This document shows, piece after piece, positions 1 to 50,720 of a stretch of 64,000 nt of DNA (the first letter of the stretch is position 1; the number at the start of each line of letters is the position of its first letter). Position numbers and translations under genes: made by a program. Source of the stretch: a virus (taxonomy: Duplodnaviria; Heunggongvirae; Uroviricota; Caudoviricetes). Where the stretch lies: the IMG/VR virus record IMGVR_UViG_2721755676_000001. One strand, given 5' to 3'. The notes beneath the pieces were generated by a model. It had not been told where the DNA came from. It searched no databases and worked only from the letters and a program-made list of their open reading frames with translations.

Positions 1-162
1 AAAGTCGGCGGGCGTCTTGTAGCAGTATTGCCGGGCACTGCGCCAATACTGGACTGGATGACGATGGATAATTACGTTTATGCCAGAGGGAAGTCGTTTA
101 CCAACGAGTTTGAAGACACAGGGATCACAGTCAGCGTATACGTTTTCAAACGCGTTAAATGA
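1..162 (+). CDS. hypothetical protein, C-terminal fragment (5' end outside window)
   Basis: Frame 1 is open from window start to TGA at 160-162; no recognisable motif. Confidence 0.25.
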   Translation, partial: KVGGRLVAVLPGTAPILDWMTMDNYVYARGKSFTNEFEDTGITVSVYVFKRVK

Positions 163-37519: not shown

Positions 37520-40500
37520 TTGGACATGGAACAGTTCAAGAAGAAAAAATTACCGCTTCTTATTGCCGGTGCTGGTGGCAAGAAAAGTAAAAGCTCCAGC
37601 CGTACCCCGGTTGAAGCTGATGATACTGTCAATTCTCGTGCTATGGCAGCCATCCTCGACCTTCTTGGCGAGGGGGTTATCGGTGGCCTGGTAAATGGCG
37701 CAAAGTCGATCTTCATCGACGATTTACCGATCTTGAATGAAGATGGCTCTTCCAACTTCAGCGGTATTACATGGGATTTTCGTGACGGCTCACAAGACCA
37801 GACGCCAATGGCTGGTTTTGATTTTGTTGAAACGCCTAAGTCCGTAAATATTCAGCTTAAAAAAACACACGACGTTACGGTTTCAATCGATAACGATGAA
37901 GCTGATCGCGTTCGTGTCATCATGAAATTCCCCTCTTTACGTAGCGTTGATAAAAGCTCTGGCGATACAAATGGCACTACGGTGAAGTACAAATTCCAGA
38001 TCGCCAACGCAGACGCAACATTTTCTGATGTAGTGGCAGAAGGTGAGAAAAGCGTTGATATCACGCTAACGGCAAAGAAAACCGGCGTGTATTACCGTAG
38101 CTATGAGCTGAAACTGCCTAAGCCTGGTCGTGCATACAAGGTTAGGGTGATTCGTCTTACAGATGATAATAGTAGCCAGTACCTCTACAACGACACATGG
38201 GTTGATTCCATCGGTGAGATTGTCGACACGCCAATGAACTACCCTAACTCTGCTCTTGTTGGCTTGAAGGTCAATTCAGAGCAGTTTGGTAGCACAATGC
38301 CTTCCCGTTCGTATTTGGTGCGCGGTATCAAAATCCGAGTACCGTCAAACTACAACGAATACACCAATACTTATGTCGGCGTATGGGACGGTACTTTTAA
38401 GCTGTTGTCTTCTTCAAACCCTGCGTGGATTCTCTACGATTTGCTTACCAATACTCGGTATGGTCTTGGGCAATTTGTGTCGGAATCCATGATTGACCTC
38501 GGCCAGCTCTACCAGATTGGTCGATATTGTGACGAGGAGGTCGATGATGGCTTTGGGGGTAAAGAGAAACGTTTTGCAATCAATACGCAGATCACTAGCC
38601 GACAGGATGCATACCGATTAATTCAGGATATTGCCGGTGCATTCCGCGGCATGGTGTTTTGGGCTGGTGGCATGGTTAACATCATGCAGGATAGCCCATC
38701 AGATCCGGTAATGATGTTTACCAACTCCAACGTCAAAGATGGACTGTTTACCTATAAAGGTTCTGCGCGTAAAGATCGCCCATCCGTTGCGCTCGTAACC
38801 TACAACAACAAGGAGGACGGTTATAAGCAAAATATCGAGTACGTTGAAGATCAGGACGCAATGCGCCGTTATGGTGAGCGTAAAACAGAAGTCGTAGCAT
38901 TTGGATGTACAAGCCGAGGCCAGGCTCACCGAGTTGGTTTGTGGCTTTTGTATACCGCCAGAATGGAGTCGGATGTAATTACATTTACTGCCGGCTTAGA
39001 CGCCTCATTTCTGATGCCTGGTGAAACCGTTCTGATTCAGAACAAATATCGTGCAGGTAAACGTAACTCCGGTCGAATTGTGGAGTTTACCAAAAACAGC
39101 ATCACTCTCGATGCGCCTGTGTCGTTAGCTAAAAGCGGCAGCTTTATTCGGATATTGAATCAGGAAGGCAAAATCGTTGAACGCGATGTTCTTGAAACTG
39201 GCGAAAACATAACAAAGGTTACGTTTTCAAAAGCCCTGTCGTCAGCGGAAACGCCTGTTTTGAACGGTGTCTGGACAATTACAGAACCAGATCTCGAACC
39301 TATGCGCGTTCGCATCGTTAACATCGCACAGGGGGAAACGCCGGGTAGCTTTGACATCACCGCTGTTGAGAACAATCCGTCTAAATATGAGGCAATCGAC
39401 AATGGTGCAACGCTGATCCCGCAGAATACGACGGTATTGGACCCAACTTACTCCAAGCCATCTAATCTGCAAATCACTGAAGGGACTTATCTCTCAAGCC
39501 CGGGCAACCTGTCAGTAAAACTGACTGCAACATGGGAAGGGAAGTCTCCAGAGTATTGGATCAGTTGGCGACGTTCTGATGAAAACAATGTATCGAACTG
39601 GCAATCGGCGCGTGTAACCGAAGAGCAATACGAAATCGTTAATGTCGCGGAGAATGGACGCTACGACTTCCAGCTGTATGCGGTTTCATTCAACGGTAAA
39701 AAAACAGAGATTATCAGTACCGTTTATCAGGTGTTGGGCACAATGACACCGCCTGATGCCCCAACGTCATTAACGGCCGTTGGAGACTATCGTAATGTGA
39801 TACTGAATTGGGTTAATCCAGATTCGGTAGACCTTGATCACATTAATGTTTACGCATCCCAGACCAACAATCTGGATACGGCGAAACTGATCGCAGAGTC
39901 TGCAAGCACCACCTTTACACATGCTGGTCTTGGGGATAGCGAAACGTGGTATTACTGGGTTCGAGCATCGAACAAGCGAGGTATGTTAAGCCCTCCGAAC
40001 TCAAACTTGGGTACAGAGGCGACAACTCGCGATGTACTGTCGTTCCTGGCTGGCAAAATTACATCTTCCGAGCTTGGTCAGGCTCTGCTTGAGGACATCA
40101 ACAGCAAAGCCTCTCAAGAAGCAGTTGACGAGTTAAATGAGCATATCAACCAGAGCGTCGAATCTTTAGAGGGGGCGGTAAACGACGTTAAGGAAGATAT
40201 AGCTGAATTAGATAAGCAGTTCAGCGATAACCTCGCGGATTTTGAAATAAAATTCAACGAGCGTAGCGATGCTTTGGAGAACGCACAAACCGAGCTTAAA
40301 GGTGAGGTTTCGGCAACGATTGACAAGGTCAATGAAGCGTTTGAAAAAATTGATGCTACTGATGCTGCAATTGTTGAAATCGAAAACACCGTATCTGAAC
40401 ACGATAAAGCTCTCGCTAATACAGTCGAGGCAATAAAGGCTGCAAGAGATGAAGCGGCGGCTCTTATTGCTAAGGAAAGCGAGGCTCGTGTTGAAGGCGA

Positions 40501-42250
40501 TGCTGCAAACGCTAAACAACTGGAAGTGTTGCAGTCAACGGTAGAGGAAAGCTCCGCTGCCGTTGAAGAAATGAAAAAGACGGTTGCAGAGGTCGATCGT
40601 GCCAGTGCAGAACTGACTACGAACATTGAGGCGTTAGCCAAAACAAATATTGACCTGGCTCTTCGTCAAGATGAAGACCAGCACAAGCAGATGGTCAATA
40701 ACGCGAAGATCGCAACAACACAGAAAACCTTTGCTGATGATATGTCTGCAATGGCCACGAAGGTTGAGGAAATTCGCGTAGAAATTGGCGAAGACATTAA
40801 GGCCAGTATTCTGGAAGAGTCCACCGCTCGTGCCGATGGCGATGAAGCGTTGGCAAAGCGTGTCACTCAGCTGCAATCTAAGTTTGAAGGAGATATCAGC
40901 GCGGCGATTAGTACAGAGCAGGAGGCTCGTACATCTGCCGATGAAGCTCTGACGACACAAATCACTCAGCTTGAGTCGAAAGTAAGCAACGATATCGTCG
41001 CAGCTATTAAGGAAGAGCAAGAAGCCCGAGCAACGGAAGATTCGGCTCTGGCAAGCCAGATCACCCAACTTCAGGCAAAGGTTGATGATGATATTTCTGC
41101 TGCAATACGTAGTGAGCAGGAGGCCCGAGCAAGCGGGGACTCTGCGTTAGCCAAACAAATAAACCAGCTTCAGTCAAAGGTTGACGGTGATATATCCGCT
41201 GCCATCACTCAGGAGCAGGAGGCCAGAGCAAGTGCTGACCAGGCGCTCTCACGAGAAATTAACAGCCTGCGAGCACAAACCGGAACTGATATTGCCGCAG
41301 CGGTTGCTGTAGAGACAAAAGCAAGGACTGATGCCGATAGTGCATTGTCTACCCAGATTACGTCTCTTACAGCAAAAGCTAATGATCTCAAGGCGTCTCT
41401 TGCCAGAGAAACAACGGCTCGTGCAGATGGTGATACCGCTTTAACAAAAGAGGTTTCAAGTTTAAAAGCACAGACAGCGAAAGATATTAGTGCGGCCGTT
41501 GCAGTTGAAACGCAGGCTCGAACTGATGCTGACTCGGCGTTGTCGTCTCAGATCACCAAGCTGACCTCTCAATACAAAGAGGATATTAAAGCGGCTGTAG
41601 CAACCGAAACGAAAACACGTACAGAGCAAGATGCTGCATTGGCGACTCAAATCACAAACTTAGAGTCTCAAACGGCAGCCAACATTTCCGCGGCGGTCAC
41701 AACTGAAACGACAGCGAGAACGCAGGCAGATAATGCTCTGAGTGGGCGAATCGATACTCTGAAAGCAGAGGTGAATGGAAATACCGCGACAATTCAACAG
41801 CAGGCAACAGCTATTGCTGATACCAACAAAAAAGTGTCAACCGCGTGGACGTTGAAAATGGAGACTTCAACGAGCGGAGGGCAGAAGTATGTTGCCGGTA
41901 TTGCGCTTGGTATTGACACCACTGGGCTATCTCAGTTTTTGGTTCAGGCGGACAGGTTTGGTTTGGTCAACTCTGTTAACGGGAAGATCACAACGCCATT
42001 TGTTATCGAAAACAGTATCGCCTATATGAATGGAGCGTATATCAAGGATGGCACAATCACCAATGCAAAAGTAGGCGATCTGCAATCTACCAATTTTGTT
42101 AGCGGTAGATCTGGATGGCGATTCGGCAAAAATGGAACGCTTGAGATCAACGGTAATAGCGGCGGCAATGGGCGATTGGTTATAAATGGTCAGCGGATTG
42201 ACGTTTATGACGATAACAACGTCTTACGAGTAAGAATTGGCCGTCTGTGA
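37520..42250 (+). CDS. central tail fibre / host specificity protein J-like with coiled-coil repeat insertion
   Basis: 1576 aa following M-L-K-I; about 570 aa of heptad-like repeats (DISAAI..EQEARA.ADEAL..QITQL) before the C-terminal domain. Confidence 0.85.
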   Translation: MDMEQFKKKKLPLLIAGAGGKKSKSSSRTPVEADDTVNSRAMAAILDLLGEGVIGGLVNGAKSIFIDDLPILNEDGSSNFSGITWDFRDGSQDQTPMAGFDFVETPKSVNIQLKKTHDVTVSIDNDEADRVRVIMKFPSLRSVDKSSGDTNGTTVKYKFQIANADATFSDVVAEGEKSVDITLTAKKTGVYYRSYELKLPKPGRAYKVRVIRLTDDNSSQYLYNDTWVDSIGEIVDTPMNYPNSALVGLKVNSEQFGSTMPSRSYLVRGIKIRVPSNYNEYTNTYVGVWDGTFKLLSSSNPAWILYDLLTNTRYGLGQFVSESMIDLGQLYQIGRYCDEEVDDGFGGKEKRFAINTQITSRQDAYRLIQDIAGAFRGMVFWAGGMVNIMQDSPSDPVMMFTNSNVKDGLFTYKGSARKDRPSVALVTYNNKEDGYKQNIEYVEDQDAMRRYGERKTEVVAFGCTSRGQAHRVGLWLLYTARMESDVITFTAGLDASFLMPGETVLIQNKYRAGKRNSGRIVEFTKNSITLDAPVSLAKSGSFIRILNQEGKIVERDVLETGENITKVTFSKALSSAETPVLNGVWTITEPDLEPMRVRIVNIAQGETPGSFDITAVENNPSKYEAIDNGATLIPQNTTVLDPTYSKPSNLQITEGTYLSSPGNLSVKLTATWEGKSPEYWISWRRSDENNVSNWQSARVTEEQYEIVNVAENGRYDFQLYAVSFNGKKTEIISTVYQVLGTMTPPDAPTSLTAVGDYRNVILNWVNPDSVDLDHINVYASQTNNLDTAKLIAESASTTFTHAGLGDSETWYYWVRASNKRGMLSPPNSNLGTEATTRDVLSFLAGKITSSELGQALLEDINSKASQEAVDELNEHINQSVESLEGAVNDVKEDIAELDKQFSDNLADFEIKFNERSDALENAQTELKGEVSATIDKVNEAFEKIDATDAAIVEIENTVSEHDKALANTVEAIKAARDEAAALIAKESEARVEGDAANAKQLEVLQSTVEESSAAVEEMKKTVAEVDRASAELTTNIEALAKTNIDLALRQDEDQHKQMVNNAKIATTQKTFADDMSAMATKVEEIRVEIGEDIKASILEESTARADGDEALAKRVTQLQSKFEGDISAAISTEQEARTSADEALTTQITQLESKVSNDIVAAIKEEQEARATEDSALASQITQLQAKVDDDISAAIRSEQEARASGDSALAKQINQLQSKVDGDISAAITQEQEARASADQALSREINSLRAQTGTDIAAAVAVETKARTDADSALSTQITSLTAKANDLKASLARETTARADGDTALTKEVSSLKAQTAKDISAAVAVETQARTDADSALSSQITKLTSQYKEDIKAAVATETKTRTEQDAALATQITNLESQTAANISAAVTTETTARTQADNALSGRIDTLKAEVNGNTATIQQQATAIADTNKKVSTAWTLKMETSTSGGQKYVAGIALGIDTTGLSQFLVQADRFGLVNSVNGKITTPFVIENSIAYMNGAYIKDGTITNAKVGDLQSTNFVSGRSGWRFGKNGTLEINGNSGGNGRLVINGQRIDVYDDNNVLRVRIGRL

Positions 42251-42343: not shown

Positions 42344-45300
42344 ATGTGGTACAGGGAAGGTACTATCACATTTACACAGGGCAGCAATACTCTGGTTGGG
42401 GCAGGGACAGCCTGGAACGTAACAGCTAATGGTGTGTTGCCGGGGATGATCGTCATTGGCCCCGACAATAAGCTGTATGAGATCAAGCGCGTAACCAGTG
42501 ATACGAACATTGTTCTCTCAGAACCTTATACCGGCGAAACTCAGTCTGAAGTTCCGTGCCGAATCATTACGACCTATGAAGGCGACTTAACACAGTTTAG
42601 CGCGCGCTTTACTGCGCTAATGTCGCGTATGTCGGCTGATTCCAAGTCCATACGCAGTTGGTTGACTGCGCTGGATGAGGTGACAATCGAGCGTGAAGAC
42701 GGTACAGAAGTGACCGTTAAGCCGCTAATGCAGATCGCCAACGAGCACAACGAAAACGTTGAGTGGTATAAAAATAACACTGACGCGATTGATGCTGCTG
42801 GCGACAAAGCTCGTGAGGCGGCGGCCAGTGCTGCCGCAGCAGCAAAAAGCGCCAATGCCGCTGGAGAAAAAGCCTCTCAAGCGTCTCAAAGTGCATCCGC
42901 TGCGGCATCCTCACAAAGTGCCGCAAGTGCGAGTGCAACTGCTGCGAAAAAATCTGAAACGAATGCTGCAGCGTCACAAAAATCTGCAGCCACTTCTGCA
43001 TCCACCGCGACCACGAAGGCGTCAGAAGCTGCCACCTCAGCCCGGGATGCGGCGGCCTCAAAAGAGGCAGCGAAATCATCAGAAACGAACGCATCCTCAA
43101 GCGCCAGTAGTGCCGCTTCCTCGGCAACGGCGGCAGGAAATTCCGCGAAGGCGGCAAAAACGTCCGAGACGAACGCCAGGTCTTCTGAAACGGCAGCGGG
43201 ACAGAGCGCCTCAGCTGCGGCAGGCTCAAAAACAGCGGCTGCGTCGTCTGCCAGTGCCGCGTCAACAAGTGCCGGGCAGGCCTCAGCCAGTGCCACCGCC
43301 GCCGGAAAATCGGCAGAAAGTGCCGCATCGTCTGCTTCAACAGCCACAACGAAGGCTGGCGAAGCCACTGAACAGGCCAGCGCAGCAGCGAGGTCTGCTT
43401 CCGCAGCGAAGACATCCGAAACGAACGCGAAAGCGTCGGAAACCAGCGCAGAATCCTCAAAAACGGCTGCCGCATCGTCCGCCAGTTCGGCGGCGTCATC
43501 GGCATCATCGGCGTCTGCTTCAAAAGATGAGGCGACCAGACAGGCGTCAGCAGCGAAGGGCAGCGCCACGACGGCATCCACGAAAGCAACAGAGGCGGCA
43601 GGCAGTGCGACGGCAGCATCTCAGAGCAAAACTGCTGCTGAATCCGCTGCGACTCGTGCGGAAGCTGCTGCTGATCGTGCTGAAGAGATTGCCGGTGCAG
43701 TTGCGATGGAAGACGCAAGCCTTACAACTAAAGGTGTTGTGAAACTTAGCAGTGCTGTCGACAGCACCAGTGAATCGCTGGCCGCAACGCCAAAAGCAGT
43801 TAAAGCAGCCAATGACAATGCGAATAGCAGGGTGCCATCTAACCGAAAAGTTAACGGTAAAGCACTGACTGCGGATATCAAATTAACGCCGAAAGATATT
43901 GGTACTTTAAATTCAGTAACGATGTCTTTCTCTGGCGGGGCAGGGTGGTTCAAACTGGCTACGGTTACCATGCCACAAGCGAGTTCCATCGTTTACATCG
44001 CATTGATTGGTGGCGCTGGTTACAACGTCGGCTCCCCACATCAGGCAGGCATTTCAGAACTGGTTCTACGAGCAGGCAATGGAAACCCCAAAGGGATTAC
44101 AGGTGCTTTGTGGAAGCGTACAGCTGTCGGATTAACGAATTTCGCCTGGATCAACACATCCGGCGATACATATGATATTTACGTTGAGATTGGCAATTAT
44201 GCGACTCGTGTAAATATCCATTGGGATTGTACTGCAAATGCGACAGTTTCTATTTATACCTCGCCAACATATTCAGCGAGTAAGCCTTCCAGCGTTACCG
44301 ATGGTGTTGTTTATACGATGTATAGCACACATCAGAAACCGACGCCGTTAGATATTGGAGCACTGCCAACAACCGGAGGAACAGTTTCAGGTCCGTTGTC
44401 TGTTACAGGTGGATTAACTGGTTCATTGAATGGTAATGCAAGTACAGCCACGAAATTGCAGACGGCAAGATCTATCGGTGGAGTTGTTTTCGACGGTTCT
44501 GCAAATATTAACCTTCCAGGTGTAAACACTACGGGTAATCAGAACACCACTGGTAATGCTGCAACTGCTACAAAACTTCAGACTGCAAGAAAAATATCCG
44601 GTGTTCCATTTGATGGTTCTACTGATATCACTTTAACCGCTGCGCATGTTGCCGCTTTCGCAAGAAGGGCAACAGGGTCATATGCGGATGCTGATGGTGG
44701 CGTGCCGTGGAATGCTGAATCTGGTGCTTACAATGTAACTAGAACAGGCGACAGTTATATTCTTGCCAACTTTTATACCGGTGTAGGTAGTTGCCGGACC
44801 CTGCAGATGAAGGCGCATTACAGAAATGGAGGTCTGTTCTACCGTTCCTCAAGAGATGGCTATGGTTTTGAAAGTGGTTGGGAGCAGGTTTACACGACTG
44901 GATTTATGCCTCAGCCGGCTGATATAAACGCGCCAACCGCTGCCGCTGGATGGTTAAATAGTGGTAACGGAACGGCATTTACGACTGCTCAATTTATAAC
45001 TTGGCTAAATAATCAGGGGGCATTTACAAACAAACATTGGATCGCACGGTGCTCATGGGCTTACGCCAACAATAATTATATAGACGACACTGGTTGCGGT
45101 AGGATCGATCTATCTGGTTCCGTGATTGAGGTGTTTAGTAATAAGGCAACAAGCCACTACACTATTCGTGTTACAACGACAACAACATCGGGTCATGGTG
45201 GTGTTAACAATGCGGAATTTATTTATGTGTACAATGGAAGTGATTATGCACCAGGCTGGCGTCGTTCTTATAACACTAGAAACAAACCAACAGCTTCTGA

Positions 45301-46642
45301 TGTAGGAGCATTATCGCTTTCTGGAGGAGCGTTAACTGGCGGATTAACTGCTGCTGGCGAGATTATTTCAAAATCGGCGAATGGTCTGCGCATTGCCTAC
45401 GGAAACTACGGATTCTTTATCCGAAACGATGGTTCAAGCACATACTTCATGTTGACCGATTCGGGTAACAGCCTGGGAACCTATAATAGTTTAAGGCCGC
45501 TTATCATTAACAATGCCAATGGTGCTGTTAGGATCGGTAATGGACTCAATGTTACTGGCGGCATCAATGGTAGTTTGAACGGTAATGCTTCAACAGCTAC
45601 GAAGTTGCAAACAGCGAGAAACATCAATGGTGTTAAGTTTGATGGTTCAGGCGATATCAACATTAATACATTGGTATCTCGTGGCCGAGTTACGGCGTTA
45701 AGCGGCTCTACTCAAGGCACTGCTGGCATTCAAATGTATGAGGCGTACAACAATAGCTACCCGACCACGTATGGCAACGTATTGCACATGAAAGGTGCGA
45801 GTGCTGCTGGTGAGGGCGAGTTGCTTATTGGCTGGAGTGGTACGAGCGGTGCACATGCGCCAGTTTTCATTCGCTCACGAAGAGATAACACAGGTGCAGC
45901 ATGGTCAGCGTGGGCGCAGGTATATACCGCTAAGGATTCAATCCCTGGTGTGAATACAACTGGTAATCAGAACACTACTGGTAATGCCGCAACCGCCACA
46001 AAATTGCAGACAGCAAGGAAAATTGCTGGTGTGGCGTTTGATGGCTCTGCCGATATAACTTTGACTGCGGCTAACCTTAATGCTTACACGAAAACAGAGG
46101 TAGCAAACCTTCTAAGCTCCTATGCAAGCAGATCATCACTGACAGGCTATAGTGGCAACCTGGATATTGTTGCTGAAACACTGGTTGTCAAATCAGGCGG
46201 TAGTGGAGGGTTTGCTATATGGGATATTGGCACAACTACTAGCGGTGCCAATATGTACATTGATCCAAACCCAGGTATCAATACAGTTTGGCGTTCAACG
46301 TCTTCAAGGCGCTATAAAAAGGATATTGAAACATTACAAGATCGATATGCTGATGAACTTTTGTCATTAAGACCTGTTTGGTATCGTTCAATTTGTCGAG
46401 GTGACCGAAAGGATTGGGGGTATTACGGCCTTATTGCTGAAGAGGTTGGTGAGATTGCCCCGCAATATGTCCATTGGCGTGAACCAACAAATAATGATTC
46501 TCCAGAAGATATTTCCTCAAATGGTATGGTCGCTGAAGGAGTGATGTATGAGCGTTTGGTTGTACCACTCATTCATCATATTCAGCAATTGACCAAAAGG
46601 GTTGAGGAGCTTGAAACGAAGTTAAATTCACCTAAAGAATAA
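42344..46642 (+). CDS. side tail fibre protein with C-terminal intramolecular-chaperone (peptidase S74-like) domain
   Basis: Ala/Ser-rich low-complexity region, three GNASTATKLQTAR..GV.FDGS fibre repeats, C-terminal DIVAE...RRYKKDIE...GLIAEEV segment. Confidence 0.8.
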   Translation: MWYREGTITFTQGSNTLVGAGTAWNVTANGVLPGMIVIGPDNKLYEIKRVTSDTNIVLSEPYTGETQSEVPCRIITTYEGDLTQFSARFTALMSRMSADSKSIRSWLTALDEVTIEREDGTEVTVKPLMQIANEHNENVEWYKNNTDAIDAAGDKAREAAASAAAAAKSANAAGEKASQASQSASAAASSQSAASASATAAKKSETNAAASQKSAATSASTATTKASEAATSARDAAASKEAAKSSETNASSSASSAASSATAAGNSAKAAKTSETNARSSETAAGQSASAAAGSKTAAASSASAASTSAGQASASATAAGKSAESAASSASTATTKAGEATEQASAAARSASAAKTSETNAKASETSAESSKTAAASSASSAASSASSASASKDEATRQASAAKGSATTASTKATEAAGSATAASQSKTAAESAATRAEAAADRAEEIAGAVAMEDASLTTKGVVKLSSAVDSTSESLAATPKAVKAANDNANSRVPSNRKVNGKALTADIKLTPKDIGTLNSVTMSFSGGAGWFKLATVTMPQASSIVYIALIGGAGYNVGSPHQAGISELVLRAGNGNPKGITGALWKRTAVGLTNFAWINTSGDTYDIYVEIGNYATRVNIHWDCTANATVSIYTSPTYSASKPSSVTDGVVYTMYSTHQKPTPLDIGALPTTGGTVSGPLSVTGGLTGSLNGNASTATKLQTARSIGGVVFDGSANINLPGVNTTGNQNTTGNAATATKLQTARKISGVPFDGSTDITLTAAHVAAFARRATGSYADADGGVPWNAESGAYNVTRTGDSYILANFYTGVGSCRTLQMKAHYRNGGLFYRSSRDGYGFESGWEQVYTTGFMPQPADINAPTAAAGWLNSGNGTAFTTAQFITWLNNQGAFTNKHWIARCSWAYANNNYIDDTGCGRIDLSGSVIEVFSNKATSHYTIRVTTTTTSGHGGVNNAEFIYVYNGSDYAPGWRRSYNTRNKPTASDVGALSLSGGALTGGLTAAGEIISKSANGLRIAYGNYGFFIRNDGSSTYFMLTDSGNSLGTYNSLRPLIINNANGAVRIGNGLNVTGGINGSLNGNASTATKLQTARNINGVKFDGSGDININTLVSRGRVTALSGSTQGTAGIQMYEAYNNSYPTTYGNVLHMKGASAAGEGELLIGWSGTSGAHAPVFIRSRRDNTGAAWSAWAQVYTAKDSIPGVNTTGNQNTTGNAATATKLQTARKIAGVAFDGSADITLTAANLNAYTKTEVANLLSSYASRSSLTGYSGNLDIVAETLVVKSGGSGGFAIWDIGTTTSGANMYIDPNPGINTVWRSTSSRRYKKDIETLQDRYADELLSLRPVWYRSICRGDRKDWGYYGLIAEEVGEIAPQYVHWREPTNNDSPEDISSNGMVAEGVMYERLVVPLIHHIQQLTKRVEELETKLNSPKE

Positions 46643-46702
46643 ACAACTTCAATCGGGGCTGGAGCTAAACCAGCCCCTGCTTAAAAGTATAAGGATATAT
46701 TT

Positions 46703-46957
46703 ATGAGCTATGGTGCACAGGTTTGGTCGCCATCAAGACAGGAGATGGTCAATGCGTTGGCCCCTGTTTATTACCTCGATTATTTTACTCCCTCTGGTTC
46801 AGGAAGTAGAACATATGAGGTTGAGGCGGGATTGGGAATCGACTATTACATAATGGACGTAACCAATGGAAAGTACACAAGTCTTACGGTTTCTGGAAAT
46901 ACCATTTCGTGGTCTGGAGCTAGTGGTAATTTAAACATATTGGTTTTTCAAAAATAA
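46703..46957 (+). CDS. hypothetical protein (84 aa)
   Basis: Terminator hairpin GGGGCTGG..CCAGCCCC and SD upstream. Confidence 0.4.
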   Translation: MSYGAQVWSPSRQEMVNALAPVYYLDYFTPSGSGSRTYEVEAGLGIDYYIMDVTNGKYTSLTVSGNTISWSGASGNLNILVFQK

Positions 46958-47565
46958 TGTACGGAAGCAAGATATATCGATCTGACGGGAAGGTCTGGAT
47001 GTCTCCTTCTTTGTCTCCTATCGTTTTTCAGAGAAAGCAGGTTGTTTCTTTGTCCGGCGGGACAGAGTTTAACACCAAAATATCTCCAGATCGTTCACCG
47101 ATTATTTTTGTTGCCTATTCGAAAGCTGTTTCATTAATAGCCAACAGAATAGTGCGTAACAACCAGGTGATTTACAGTTTCGGAGGTCGGGGTAGCGACT
47201 CTAGTGCCACGATATACGTATTTTCGAAAGGTATAGCCAAAAAAGAAACTTGGGGCATGAGTTTTTTCAATGCACAAGGGGGGGAAATCTATAATACGGC
47301 AAATATCCCACTTTCATTTACCTTTCTTAATAATACGGAGTGGAACAGCTCTGGAGGGCATGTTTTTGATTACCCTCCAGCGATAATCCCAACATATGCG
47401 AATGTGTTCGCTGTTCCAGTACCGGGCGGAGCCATGACAATGGTTTATGGATATGCGGCGTATGGAAATACTGTTAGCTCGATATTCGTAAACCAACTTA
47501 ATGGCGGCCATAGTTTTAGCGTAAATGGCAGAGTACCGGTAATAAATAGAAATCTGTATAACTGA
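46957..47565 (+). CDS. hypothetical Gly/Ser-rich protein (202 aa)
   Basis: TAATG overlap with the preceding gene. Confidence 0.4.
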   Translation: MYGSKIYRSDGKVWMSPSLSPIVFQRKQVVSLSGGTEFNTKISPDRSPIIFVAYSKAVSLIANRIVRNNQVIYSFGGRGSDSSATIYVFSKGIAKKETWGMSFFNAQGGEIYNTANIPLSFTFLNNTEWNSSGGHVFDYPPAIIPTYANVFAVPVPGGAMTMVYGYAAYGNTVSSIFVNQLNGGHSFSVNGRVPVINRNLYN

Positions 47566-47572
47566 TGAGTAA

Positions 47573-47806
47573 ATGATGAAAAGATTATTTCTAACAATAG
47601 CTGTTGTTCTCTCTCTTACTGGCTGCCAGAAATTGCCGACACCTATATGTTATGGTGAAGCTATCATTGGTGGACAGGAGACAGTCATACCCATATATGC
47701 TGTTAAAAAAGTGAACGACTATACCTTATACAAAGCGGGTAGCATCTATAACTGGCGATGGGTTGGAGTAGGTGCTTTCTCATCAATCGGTTGCAATGCT
47801 GAATGA
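47573..47806 (+). CDS. small lipoprotein (77 aa), candidate superinfection-exclusion factor
   Basis: Signal peptide with lipobox LTGC, directly downstream of the fibre genes. Confidence 0.6.
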   Translation: MMKRLFLTIAVVLSLTGCQKLPTPICYGEAIIGGQETVIPIYAVKKVNDYTLYKAGSIYNWRWVGVGAFSSIGCNAE

Positions 47807-47875
47807 TAGGTAAGTACACACCTACAACAAAAGGGTGAAATGTGATATAAATCCGCCATCCCGATTTGACTTTTC

Positions 47876-48211
47876 ATGGAGGAAAACATGTCGAACGAGA
47901 TGGCGGGCGTTACAACAGAGCAAGTTGAGCGTATTGCCGCGATCGTTGCTCGGGAGGTTGTTGGCAAATTAGGTAAAGAGCTACGTGAAGAAATTGGCCA
48001 GGAGGTCAATGATCAGCTGAAAACCTACTTTGGTGATATGACCCCGGCGCAACATAGTATTCAACACTCCAATCTGGACAAACTCCTTAACCGGTTAGAT
48101 TCCATCTCAAGTGGGTTCTTTGGCGGCATTGTTTCTAAAATAACGTCGTTCATTATTACCGCACTGCTTTTGGGGTTAGCCGCGTATGGCGTAAAAAGTG
48201 GACTGCAATAA
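47876..48211 (+). CDS. membrane protein with C-terminal TM segment (possible holin)
   Basis: One hydrophobic helix (ITSFIITALLLGLAAYGV) at the C-terminus; immediately precedes the lysin gene. Confidence 0.4.
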   Translation: MEENMSNEMAGVTTEQVERIAAIVAREVVGKLGKELREEIGQEVNDQLKTYFGDMTPAQHSIQHSNLDKLLNRLDSISSGFFGGIVSKITSFIITALLLGLAAYGVKSGLQ

Positions 48212-48224
48212 CAGGAGATCAAGG

Positions 48225-48917
48225 ATGAAGACTCCGAGAGGCATTCGTAATAATAACCCCGGTAATCTTGATAAAGGATCACCGTGGCAAGGTCTGGTTG
48301 CGAATCCAGACGAACCGCGCTTTTGCACGTTTAAAGACCCTGTTTGGGGGATTCGTGCGCTGGCGGTGACTCTAATTACCTACCACGATAAACGTCGCGC
48401 AAAAGACGGCTCAAGTATCGATACCATTCGTGAAGTTATTGAACGCTGGGCACCGCCGAATGAAAACAATACTGACGCCTACATTAATGAGGTGTCTAAA
48501 GCCGTTGGTGTAACCGCAGACATGATCATCGATCTGCATGATTACGACATCCTTCGACCTTTGGTTGAGGCAATCATTCGCCACGAGAATGGCCGAGGCC
48601 CGCTAAAAACGCTGAACACCTGGTATGCGGCAGAAGTTATTGAGGAAGGTCTGCGTCGAGCTGGCGTTGTTAAGCCGGTGAAAACCGTGAAGGCTGTTCC
48701 TGTAACTAAAGAAACCGCAGGCGCAACTGTTACAGCAGGTATTGGTCTGGCGCAGCTGGCCGATGTTATGCCGCAGGTTTCCGCTGCTATGGATAAAGCA
48801 CAAGGTCATATCTCTAGCGGGGATACAGTACGCATCATCTTCGGTATTGCCACTATTGTTGTGGCAGGATTCATTGCCTGGTCGCAGGTAAGAAAACACC
48901 AGAAAGGGATGGTCTAA
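48225..48917 (+). CDS. putative endolysin with C-terminal membrane anchor
   Basis: ATG at 48225 with SD CAGGAG; position in lysis cassette; N-terminal GIRNNNPGNL-containing domain, C-terminal TM (IIFGIATIVVAGFIAW). Enzymatic class not determined. Confidence 0.45.
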   Translation: MKTPRGIRNNNPGNLDKGSPWQGLVANPDEPRFCTFKDPVWGIRALAVTLITYHDKRRAKDGSSIDTIREVIERWAPPNENNTDAYINEVSKAVGVTADMIIDLHDYDILRPLVEAIIRHENGRGPLKTLNTWYAAEVIEEGLRRAGVVKPVKTVKAVPVTKETAGATVTAGIGLAQLADVMPQVSAAMDKAQGHISSGDTVRIIFGIATIVVAGFIAWSQVRKHQKGMV

Positions 48918-48918
48918 T

Positions 48919-49170
48919 ATGCTAGGCAGCCTGATGACAAAGCTAAAAGTTGCTTTGATTACGCTGGCTGCCGTTCTTTTCGTTCTGGTCGGCGCTTACA
49001 CGATGGGCGGAAATGCGGCGCGACGAGCAATGGAAGAGAAGGCAAAACAGGAAGACAGGAAACGACTTCAAAGCACAGTGGATGTCAAAAATGAAACGGT
49101 TAATGAAGTGCGGCAAAAAGATGCCTCTGGTGTTCATCGCGAGCTGTTTGATAAATGGGTGCGTGATTAA
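48919..49170 (+). CDS. i-spanin (Rz-like)
   Basis: N-terminal TM helix then charged coiled-coil periplasmic region; follows the lysin. Confidence 0.55.
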   Translation: MLGSLMTKLKVALITLAAVLFVLVGAYTMGGNAARRAMEEKAKQEDRKRLQSTVDVKNETVNEVRQKDASGVHRELFDKWVRD

Positions 49171-49318
49171 GACGCAGGCTCCAGGCGTGCTATTCTGCGA
49201 TGCTGCAAATCCTATCTATGTGAGTAGAGAGGATTTTATGACTGAGGAAACGGAGCGACAGTTGCTTATCCACAATACGATAGGTGAAAGGCTGTGTGAG
49301 TGGGGGCACCTGAACTGA
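49091..49318 (+). CDS. o-spanin (Rz1-like lipoprotein), overlapping +1 frame
   Basis: Start inside the i-spanin gene; signal peptide with lipobox FIASC. Confidence 0.5.
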   Translation: MKRLMKCGKKMPLVFIASCLINGCVIKTQAPGVLFCDAANPIYVSREDFMTEETERQLLIHNTIGERLCEWGHLN

Positions 49319-49542: not shown

Positions 49543-49962
49543 ATGCTAAATTATCATGACAATACGCGTTCTATGCAGACGATCCGCACCAATACTGCGG
49601 TCATCGACAGCTTTCCTATGCGTATTCACAACAGTGAAGACGCAGTAGAAGTGCGACGTATGTTGTGCCGTGAATCAGCTAACCGCCAGCACTTCATCGT
49701 CACTTTTAAGAGCGATGTGGCGCGTGCCGAAAAGATCTCTAATTCTACGTCACTGGTTAAACCGTTGGCCGAGGTTGTCGCTAACGGTAAACGAACCTCT
49801 TTTGTTTTAGATGTTGCTGAACAATATCCTGACTTGAAGTGTTTAGATCGTGATATTTCTTCACGAATCAAACAAGTTGTAGAGTCTTTTATGAAGAAAT
49901 TCTGTAAAATCGATGATATGGAACCATCAACGGCACAGAATACTTCATGGCACCATCTCTAA
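49543..49962 (+). CDS. hypothetical protein (139 aa)
   Basis: ORF after a 220-bp hairpin-rich intergenic region. Confidence 0.45.
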   Translation: MLNYHDNTRSMQTIRTNTAVIDSFPMRIHNSEDAVEVRRMLCRESANRQHFIVTFKSDVARAEKISNSTSLVKPLAEVVANGKRTSFVLDVAEQYPDLKCLDRDISSRIKQVVESFMKKFCKIDDMEPSTAQNTSWHHL

Positions 49963-50720
49963 TTGGTCAGGCGAACAGATTAATCCCTGAAATAGAAGAC
50001 TACAGCAAGGTCTTGTCTGAAATGCCGAGAGCGACGAGAATTATCGCTCTCGGTGAGTTCTATTTTATCTCCCGAGGTTTCGATCTAATTCGATTTACCG
50101 AATACGAGCTTGTTGATTCGGCCTATGAACGCTGTATTGTTGGCGAGTGTCTTGAGTCATGTGATCCTGATTACCAAGAGCAGGAAGTTAAGCGACTCAA
50201 ACGTGCTGGTTACACACCTCTTGAGATAGGAGCAGAAATTGAATCCTACAAGTTGCATGTGGGGCAGCCAGTCCAAACAGTCTTCCGCGTGGCCTACTGC
50301 GAGTTTCCAATCAAGGATAAATCTGGAGTAAAAGTCAGCGCCAAGCAGATTAGAGGGGTTTTTACTCATGCTGATTATATGGGATTAGGCATCGCAAGTT
50401 TTGCTTACCTTTATCTCGTAGATAAGTATCAGTACTTGGTTTGCGATACGTTACAGACGGTAAAAGGCGCAACTCTTTGGGCTGTGAGTATGCGCAAACA
50501 TGGACTGGTCGAAATTTACGATACGAAGAACGAAAATTTTATAGAGGAATTGGGTGAGGATGCCTGTGGCGTAAGTGGTTTTATTCCGTGGGATATCGGT
50601 AAGTCTGACGGAGGCCAGATGCGAAGACGTGAAGAGTGGGGGACTAATAAAATCAATCTCACCCCAGGTGCTTGTACTCATATAGTGAACATTCTGACTA
50701 AACGATCTATGAATCAATAA
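49947..50720 (+). CDS. hypothetical protein (257 aa)
   Basis: Overlaps the preceding gene end; followed by a strong terminator. Confidence 0.45.
   Translation: MAPSLIGQANRLIPEIEDYSKVLSEMPRATRIIALGEFYFISRGFDLIRFTEYELVDSAYERCIVGECLESCDPDYQEQEVKRLKRAGYTPLEIGAEIESYKLHVGQPVQTVFRVAYCEFPIKDKSGVKVSAKQIRGVFTHADYMGLGIASFAYLYLVDKYQYLVCDTLQTVKGATLWAVSMRKHGLVEIYDTKNENFIEELGEDACGVSGFIPWDIGKSDGGQMRRREEWGTNKINLTPGACTHIVNILTKRSMNQ

Follow-up and report, generated by a model that had tools for sequence, protein, structure and literature searches.

A candidate terminal-receptor module with a Cor-family lipoprotein in an SSU5-like phage-plasmid

Introduction

The closest described relatives of the locus studied here, three consecutive genes in a 64 000-nucleotide stretch of viral DNA (IMG/VR record IMGVR_UViG_2721755676_000001, Caudoviricetes; hereafter 'the window'), are the gp22–gp23–cor genes of phages phi80 and N15 and the 'Cor cassette' of phages T1 and KanT1. 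Cor proteins functionally inactivate the ferrichrome transporter FhuA and exclude FhuA-dependent phages, as shown for those of mEp167, HK022 and phi80. They share the fold of the T5 lipoprotein Llp, with which they have been placed in one structural family and have an intramolecular disulphide in common. T5 Llp binds FhuA on its periplasmic side, closes loops EL7 and EL8 and needs no helper, and an AlphaFold 3 (AF3) model in the KanT1 paper (2026) sets a T1-like Cor on the same face of FhuA.

The role of the two genes upstream of cor is disputed. The KanT1 paper, which describes the Cor cassette in T1 and KanT1, found no structural homologues for the upstream pair and guessed a role in exclusion; in the part of Wietzorrek et al. 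(2006) that it relays, the cassette is common to T1, HK022, N15, ES18 and phi80. The authors of the BASEL collection (Maffei et al., 2021) and a 2026 preprint, by contrast, regard the locus 3′ of gpJ as encoding a receptor-binding protein (RBP), accessory proteins and a cognate exclusion protein, comparative genomics and AF3 models giving an RBP function to this locus. All ten BASEL phages found with cor and both upstream genes use FhuA.

We report here that the three genes of the window are, judged by family and order, a divergent copy of this described cassette. The module is largely ordinary: it adds a phage-plasmid lineage to the range of a known cassette and does not overturn current understanding. 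We lean towards reading it as the terminal-receptor module of an SSU5-like phage-plasmid, composed of a tail-tip protein pair and Cor, and hold this proposal as a whole to be moderately probable. What is new is the allelic pattern of the pair in SSU5-like phage-plasmids, which have it as one of several interchangeable alleles, at two loci. The analysis further adds evidence that proteins so far labelled as 'membrane' proteins are probable tail-tip RBPs.

Results

The three genes and the Cor lipoprotein

The genes encode proteins of 84 residues (46703–46957), 202 residues (46957–47565) and 77 residues (cor precursor, 47573–47806), all on the + strand and exactly where a preliminary description made from the sequence alone had placed them. 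The stop codon of the first and the start codon of the second overlap by one base (TAATG, 46955–46959), so the two are translationally coupled, and cor starts 7 nt past the stop codon of the second. All three are real genes and not chance open reading frames (ORFs), because each strongly matches a phage protein family (phrog_557, phrog_425 and phrog_1119, respectively) and the block is conserved on plasmids.

The 77-residue product begins with MMKRLFLTIAVVLSLTG followed by CQ, and the lipobox L15-T16-G17-C18 (47615–47626, + strand) that the preliminary description had read as LTGC is indeed there. Its predicted parts are a signal peptide (residues 1–17), a lipidated Cys18 and a mature protein of 60 residues; Pfam LPAM_1 matches residues 2–19 with 16.6 bits, under its 20-bit cutoff. 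The protein matches the NCBIfam equivalog model NF047972, 'phage exclusion lipoprotein Cor', with 80.1 bits against a cutoff of 31 (E = 8.7e-23, model positions 1–77 of 78) and phrog_1119 with E = 7.8e-30. It is 59% identical to SSU5_025, 58% to the Cor of Stx2-phage 86, 47% to HK022 Cor and 42% to phi80 Cor, and is nearer to the last two than the T1-like Cor of phage Bas07 is to either. In a seven-member alignment (window, SSU5, Stx2-86, HK022, phi80, Bas07 and tonijn), C18, C26, C74, W63 and F69 are invariant and all are kept in the window protein, which thus has the two further conserved cysteines of the family (C26 and C74) together with its NWRW/F core. The matches assign the protein to the Cor family, which is more than the resemblance to lambdoid Cor and T5 Llp remarked on at the outset. 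The Prokaryotic Genome Annotation Pipeline (PGAP) already names the gene cor on near-identical plasmids (about 65 Escherichia coli plasmids). A phmmer search of the protein against all PDB chains, the FhuA–Llp complex included, gave no match at E up to 10.

Lipoproteins with a residue other than Asp at position +2 are sorted to the outer membrane by the Lol pathway. The +2 residue of the window Cor is Gln, and outer-membrane sorting is therefore expected.

The two upstream proteins

The 84-residue protein belongs to the gp22 family of phi80 and N15 (phrog_557, E = 2.4e-24) and aligns over its full length with SSU5_023, tonijn gp17, a 93-residue protein of PhiR41_1, Stx2-86 gp27, phi80 gp22 and Bas07_0024. 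The 202-residue protein belongs to the gp23 family (phrog_425, E = 6.4e-48 over residues 1–201 of 202), whose members align over their full length with conserved termini and fall into 247 representative clusters in an exhaustive profile search. In a homologue scan, both families included phi80 gp22/gp23 (annotated as similar to N15 gp22/gp23), the genes between J and cor of phage JakobBernoulli (Bas07), gp27/gp28 of Stx2-phage 86 and the PhiR41_1 pair, and the 84-residue type of gene lies immediately 5′ of the gp23-like gene, in the same order, in seven phages. Within these families the window and SSU5 pairs form a divergent subgroup (76% and 68% identity between them), with 24–30% identity to a subgroup of about 204 residues (tonijn, PhiR41_1 and Shiga toxin (Stx) phages) and 20–26% to a 224-residue subgroup linked to FhuA.

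The composition of the two proteins, first described as Gly/Ser-rich, bears this out only moderately (Gly 10.7% and Ser 13.1% in the 84-residue protein; Gly 9.9% and Ser 11.9% in the 202-residue protein). Neither has a signal peptide or a transmembrane helix, the maximum 19-residue Kyte–Doolittle means being 0.54 and 1.38, respectively. No Pfam family, Caudo_TAP (PF02413) and other chaperones included, reached its gathering score with either protein, and NCBIfam gave no match for either.

The 202-residue protein shows structural homology to the solved RBP of phage Oekolampad (Bas18; PDB entry 9rpt), a member of phrog_1265. The sequence links between the two families are weak: the PhiR41_1 member matches phrog_1265 with E = 8e-5, two long family members match the Oekolampad RBP with E = 2e-4 and share the motif Y.F..P..G..G...PL with it, and an hhalign comparison of the 202-residue family with this RBP gave E = 0.19 in the same register. 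Foldseek against the PDB returned no match for the 202-residue model, nor did a sequence search of PDB chains with the family profile at E up to 10; against BFVD, Foldseek found the fold in uncharacterized proteins of 204–321 residues from many phages of Proteobacteria. The PHROG labels 'outer membrane protein' (phrog_557), 'membrane associated protein' (phrog_425) and 'membrane protein / moron' (phrog_1265) are misleading and unsupported, since the window members have neither signal peptide nor transmembrane helix and the solved Oekolampad RBP itself falls in phrog_1265. These labels are now spreading through RefSeq phage annotations.

The two proteins of the pair are also related to each other. 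The 84-residue family is homologous to the N-terminal 87 or so residues of the 202-residue family (hhalign probability 91.5%, E = 8.6e-7, residues 1–78), which identifies the 84-residue protein as a paralogue of the N-terminal domain of its neighbour. Around residues 99–122 of the 202-residue protein a second copy of the leading motif can be seen (TWGMSFFNAQGGEIYNTANIPL; the phi80 gp23 counterpart is WGMAIWDAAGKLVLTNESRVL), which hints at an internal duplication. A tandem duplication of the 84-residue unit, at which a MAFFT alignment also hinted, was not significant when the two halves were compared with hhalign (E = 0.026); the 84-residue protein against the C-terminal half gave E = 2.6e-4, and both comparisons are driven by the leading motif of about 20 residues.

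In AlphaFold 2 (AF2) models of the isolated proteins, the 84-residue protein is mostly β with one short helix, at a predicted local distance difference test (pLDDT) score of 80, and the 202-residue protein is modelled at a pLDDT of 72. An N-terminal arm, M-x-YG-x2-[IW]-x3-G...P, is the most conserved stretch of both proteins and is also found in the Oekolampad RBP, and it is the lowest-confidence part of both models. An arm that is conserved but poorly predicted in isolation would fit a docking element that becomes ordered only on its partner. In the solved RBP, the tail-proximal part is likewise poorly ordered. We note that PGAP (NZ_CP101923.1, NP442_RS22875) and the SSU5 GenBank record (SSU5_024) start the 202-residue gene 14 codons late, giving 188 residues; the late start (window 46957–47000) removes the most conserved N-terminal motif of the family, MYGxxIxxxDGxxWxSP.

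The central fibre tip and the side fibre

The gene of the central tail fibre J (37520–42250, + strand) ends in a tip domain (residues about 1370–1576; 41627–42247, + strand) that is 32–42% identical to its counterparts in phi80, HK022, Bas07 (FhuA), tonijn, Bas10 (YncD) and Bas18 (LptD), and every phage in this comparison has separate RBP-locus proteins. The association extends to another morphotype. In the Stx2-converting podophage 86 (comparison sequence L006, 8158–10345) the pair directly follows the tail fibre gene gp26, with lom next, and gp26 ends in a J-tip-like domain (...IEVYDENGRLAVRIGRLS, against ...IDVYDDNNVLRVRIGRL in the window) that matches the tips of tonijn and IsaakIselin (Bas10) with E of about 3e-7 over some 200 residues. 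In siphophages and podophages alike, the pair thus goes with the J-tip domain, the pattern to be expected if its proteins dock on that tip. As a side remark, 933W-like Stx phages may bind their terminal receptor with a module of the same kind.

Upstream of the tip, J residues of about 1076–1370 (window 40700–41630) form a long run of Ala/Glu/Ser-rich repeats of about 33 residues with a coiled-coil look. The run makes the window J about 400 residues longer than that of phi80; the SSU5 J is about 190 residues shorter in this region.

The side tail fibre (1432 residues; 42344–46642, + strand) matches Pfam Gp34_trimer (105.7 bits) and carries, as the preliminary description had it, its own C-terminal chaperone domain, an intramolecular Peptidase_S74 domain at residues 1320–1376 (46301–46471; 27 bits against a cutoff of 22).

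Two further loci resemble that of the window. Tonijn, of the genus Warwickvirus, which has not been typed to FhuA, still has a partner resembling Cor, with the genes in another order: a 91-residue lipoprotein gene lies just 5′ of its pair (L004, 4452–4727) and weakly matches phrog_1119 (E = 6e-8). The YncD-dependent IsaakIselin (L013, 10099–11473) has the same layout as the window, with proteins of 101, 217 and 110 residues, the last with an N-terminal hydrophobic leader, but these belong to other PHROG families; the small protein of the locus is connected to the 84-residue family by the common N-terminal motif and by faint profile similarity (phrog_2427). Given the different families and such faint links between the small proteins, this YncD-type locus was of no help as a guide to the receptor. 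A J fragment fused to a gp23-like protein and followed by a 77-residue ORF was found in two metagenome contigs (L014, 6001–7014; L015, 3530–4543), where the tail module is decaying. This fusion protein (P0159) was considered as Rosetta-stone evidence and discarded as a deletion artefact, the contigs being degraded prophage remnants with several internal deletions.

Alleles and loci in SSU5-like elements

The window can be assigned to the SSU5-like phage-plasmids. The lysis genes directly 3′ of the cassette are 99% identical to those of Escherichia phage Cyrano and 85% to those of Salmonella phage SSU5. The cassette itself is present at 95–100% identity in 65–67 of 5,426 complete E. coli genomes (about 1.2%), every time on plasmids of about 95–125 kb and never on the chromosome.

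A blastn comparison with Cyrano delimits what has been exchanged. The two sequences are colinear at 95.8% up to 44634, inside the fibre gene, and patchily similar (75–92%) up to 46124; 46125–47804 has no counterpart, and homology resumes at 47805, in the final bases of the cor stop codon. The gap between fibre and holin genes in Cyrano is only about 200 nt and holds no cassette. The distal side fibre, the pair and cor (44635–47804, + strand) therefore represent one block swapped relative to Cyrano. With SSU5, by contrast, the cassette is colinear together with the lysis genes (46703–49277, 76%); the fibre of SSU5 is a different one, and a separate adhesin comes in addition.

Cyrano is not devoid of a pair. 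An allele that we call R41-type lies about 55 kb away from its fibre/holin locus (82217–82828), at a second locus of SSU5-like elements between a 189-residue gene and a DUF4942 gene. PhiR41_1 (L007, 5714–6615) and CMS-2020a are like Cyrano in having an R41-type pair at this locus and lacking the cassette described here. The R41-type pair is 80% identical to the 'unmatched RBP module' of the Nonagviruses JenP1 and JenP2 and 61% identical to the Stx phage pair. Conversely, the second locus of the window-type plasmid pEcFELIX526.1 is empty of an R41-type pair. Window positions 1–159 match the gene that follows the pair in PhiR41_1, which suggested that another pair, of the R41 type, might lie just before position 1 of the window; pEcFELIX526.1, a near-identical complete plasmid, has none there, and no second copy of the pair was found inside the window.

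In PLSDB, a member of the family occurs on 246 plasmids: 68 carry the window type (at least 95% identity), four an allele at 80–90%, 53 the SSU5 type (60–80%; Enterobacter, Salmonella and Citrobacter) and 121 an allele below 60%, mostly R41-type. The places number 261 in all. Among 60 rows sampled evenly down the ranking, 59 had exactly one copy of the pair; the census rests on sampled rows and may miss plasmids with more divergent alleles. One copy per element, in alternative alleles, looks like a required structural or host-range component and not like an optional moron.

A few features surround the cassette. Its GC content is 38–44%, compared with 45–52% downstream (lysis genes). A GC-rich hairpin of 8 bp (46655–46677, + strand) lies between the fibre stop codon and the 84-residue gene, and the 66-nt stretch that contains it (46640–46705) has a minimum free energy of −19.1 kcal/mol (z = −3.3 against shuffled sequences). 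The hairpin has no T-run and a terminator scan made no call there; it may act as a weak terminator or else contribute to RNA stability. PADLOC returned zero matches to any model for the three proteins. Downstream of the lysis cassette, two ORFs of 139 and 257 residues occupy window positions 49543–50720, a region which in Cyrano and pEcFELIX526.1 holds a KacT/TacA-type toxin–antitoxin pair on the opposite strand.

Discussion

In the terminal-receptor reading, the side fibre would make the first contact with surface glycans or lipopolysaccharide (LPS). The 84- and 202-residue proteins would be soluble, mostly β virion proteins held non-covalently on the conserved J tip, probably through the conserved N-terminal arm that they share; the 202-residue protein would be the RBP proper and the 84-residue protein a small tail-tip accessory or adaptor subunit. 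Binding of the pair to a terminal outer-membrane receptor would then lead to DNA ejection. In the infected or lysogenic cell, Cor would be lipidated, pass to the outer membrane and bind the periplasmic face of the receptor, making its surface loops unavailable, so that neither this phage nor any other with that receptor could still adsorb to such cells or to their debris. This would prevent superinfection and keep progeny from being lost on debris. The distal side fibre, the pair and cor would be exchanged together as one host-range block.

These elements are not equally firm. The structure of the genes, the families of all three proteins, the structural similarity to a solved RBP, the paralogy within the pair, its co-occurrence with the J-tip domain and the allelic pattern in phage-plasmids are shown. 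Docking on J within the virion, the division of labour between the two proteins and the identity of the receptor are what we infer; structure, homology and co-occurrence together make it rather likely that the pair sits on the J tip with the 202-residue protein as RBP and the 84-residue protein as accessory. The Cor mechanism follows, by analogy, the published work on Cor and T5 Llp. FhuA is most probably the receptor, and the best guess, because all characterized Cor proteins act on FhuA and the full triad goes with FhuA in all typed phages. We consider it likely that the window Cor acts on FhuA, and that the pair also binds FhuA has about an even chance. The preliminary description had put forward a host-range or exclusion module; its host-range half finds backing in the structural homology to a solved RBP and its exclusion half in the assignment of the lipoprotein to the Cor family.

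A more elaborate picture, on which we would place little weight, is that the pair forms a 'split' receptor-binding cap. Homologous β-sandwich domains, one from the 84-residue protein and one or two from the 202-residue protein, would sit on the three-fold J tip and break its symmetry, thereby presenting just one site for the receptor. One interchangeable pair allele at either of the two loci would retarget a universal J tip, and only the post-fibre alleles would come with a cognate Cor that gives the host resistance to FhuA-dependent phages, colicin M and albomycin.

Several observations weigh against the terminal-receptor reading. The pair is not directly adjacent to J, the 4.3-kb side-fibre gene lying between them, and a side-fibre gene intervenes in SSU5 as well; R41-type elements have their pair at a distance from the tail genes, in a region of early or accessory genes. 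The Cyrano J is 97.8% identical to that of the window, and its tip 99.5%, yet Cyrano has a different pair allele. In the virion proteomics and cryo-electron microscopy (cryo-EM) literature neither small protein is shown in a particle; the distal tip is unresolved in the T1 cryo-EM study and only one gel band was analysed in that of SECphi27 (Warwickvirus). The AF2 model of the 202-residue protein is of moderate confidence, and it is residues 147–190, the probable receptor-contact region, that are poorly predicted. The sole documented receptor of SSU5 is the LPS core, bound through the fibre adhesin gp22, with which a protein terminal receptor is still compatible. Moreover, a promoter scan for independent expression of cor in the plasmid or lysogenic state found two weak sites, none convincing, against 4.5 expected by chance; cor is therefore probably co-transcribed with the late genes.

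Others among the adverse observations lend themselves to an alternative in which Cor is an independent moron that blocks FhuA against competitors such as T1, T5 and phi80, and the pair consists of tail-tip RBPs for a different outer-membrane receptor, with no cognate pairing between them. Linkage between cor and the pair is not obligatory: the 58%-identical cor of Stx2-86 follows a fibre gene and an adhesin gene and does not have the pair beside it, and related R41-type alleles occur without any Cor. The window pair is equidistant from the FhuA-linked and the other subgroups, and at 20–30% identity to both its receptor specificity cannot be transferred by homology; its nearest relatives outside SSU5 are those of Warwickviruses, which reportedly do not use FhuA alone. 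On the other hand, FhuA is the receptor of every typed phage that has all three genes, and in the solved systems (T5 pb5/Llp and Oekolampad/Rtp) the exclusion lipoprotein lies beside its cognate RBP. The gap between pair and cor is just 7 nt in the window, the genes are kept together in SSU5, and even tonijn has a weakly Cor-like gene by its pair. We regard this alternative as unlikely.

The authors of the KanT1 paper assumed, from the 'membrane protein' labels, that the pair are host-cell factors that aid exclusion by Cor and not parts of the virion. Conservation of the pair beside cor in T1-like and lambdoid phages would agree with this, as would the virion literature just cited. However, proteins with neither signal peptide nor transmembrane helix cannot reach the envelope, phrog_1265, with its solved RBP, bears a label of that kind too, and T5 Llp works without a helper. 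In addition, the pair is common without Cor, as in Stx phages and the 121 PLSDB hits below 60% identity, and follows the J-tip domain rather than cor, besides its structural homology to an RBP. A helper role thus appears distinctly improbable. Finally, Tfa-like assembly chaperones or adhesins for the side tail fibre, for which the place immediately 3′ of that fibre would be the usual one, are a very improbable identity for the pair, already disfavoured in the preliminary description: the fibre has its own S74 domain, no Caudo_TAP or other chaperone family matches, the pair follows J and not a side fibre in phi80 and JakobBernoulli (Bas07), and SSU5 keeps the pair despite a different fibre with its own adhesin.

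Between the two published views of the pair, RBPs and exclusion helpers, we thus favour RBPs, because of the structural link to a solved RBP, the paralogy within the pair, the co-occurrence with the J tip and the pattern of one allele per element. If Cor is expressed in the plasmid state, the sensitivity of the host to T1, T5, phi80, colicin M and albomycin would change, and possibly its ferrichrome uptake, an effect relevant to phage therapy and plasmid ecology.

Comparison with known systems

Set beside known systems, the window comes closest to phi80, where J, gp22 (phrog_557), gp23 (phrog_425) and cor follow one another, in the same families and the same order, and JakobBernoulli, which depends on FhuA, has a layout like that of phi80. 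Across T1, phi80, N15 and HK022 the likeness lies in the succession of proteins of about 85–100 and 200–225 residues and a Cor of about 77 residues, and in a homologous J tip. The differences are also clear. The window pair is only 20–27% identical to that of phi80 and groups separately with SSU5; its cassette comes after the side fibre, instead of directly after J as in phi80; cor is 7 nt from the pair, compared with a gap of 112 nt in phi80 and a position on the opposite strand in Bas07; and the carrier is a phage-plasmid of about 110 kb, unlike those of the phi80/T1 type.

Oekolampad offers a parallel in which the RBP gene (bas18_0025) lies beside that of the exclusion lipoprotein (bas18_0026) downstream of J, and Rtp44/Rtp45 form the same LptD-targeting module. 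The families are different (phrog_1265 and phrog_4281, against phrog_425 and phrog_1119 in the window) and the profile likeness is weak, as the hhalign value given above indicates. Oekolampad has a single RBP of 321 residues where the window has a pair of 84 and 202 residues, its receptor is LptDE and exclusion works by steric displacement of a loop. T5 follows the same logic, with a monomeric tip RBP, pb5, for an outer-membrane transporter and an adjacent small lipoprotein, Llp, that inactivates the transporter from the periplasm; yet pb5, of 640 residues, is unrelated in sequence to the 202-residue protein, and Llp gave no match to the window Cor in the PDB sequence search described above, the kinship of fold between Cor and Llp being taken from the literature. 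With lambda Stf/Tfa, the window pair shares its place downstream of the side tail fibre gene, whereas it has no homology to those proteins, the window fibre is self-chaperoned and in other phages the pair follows J.

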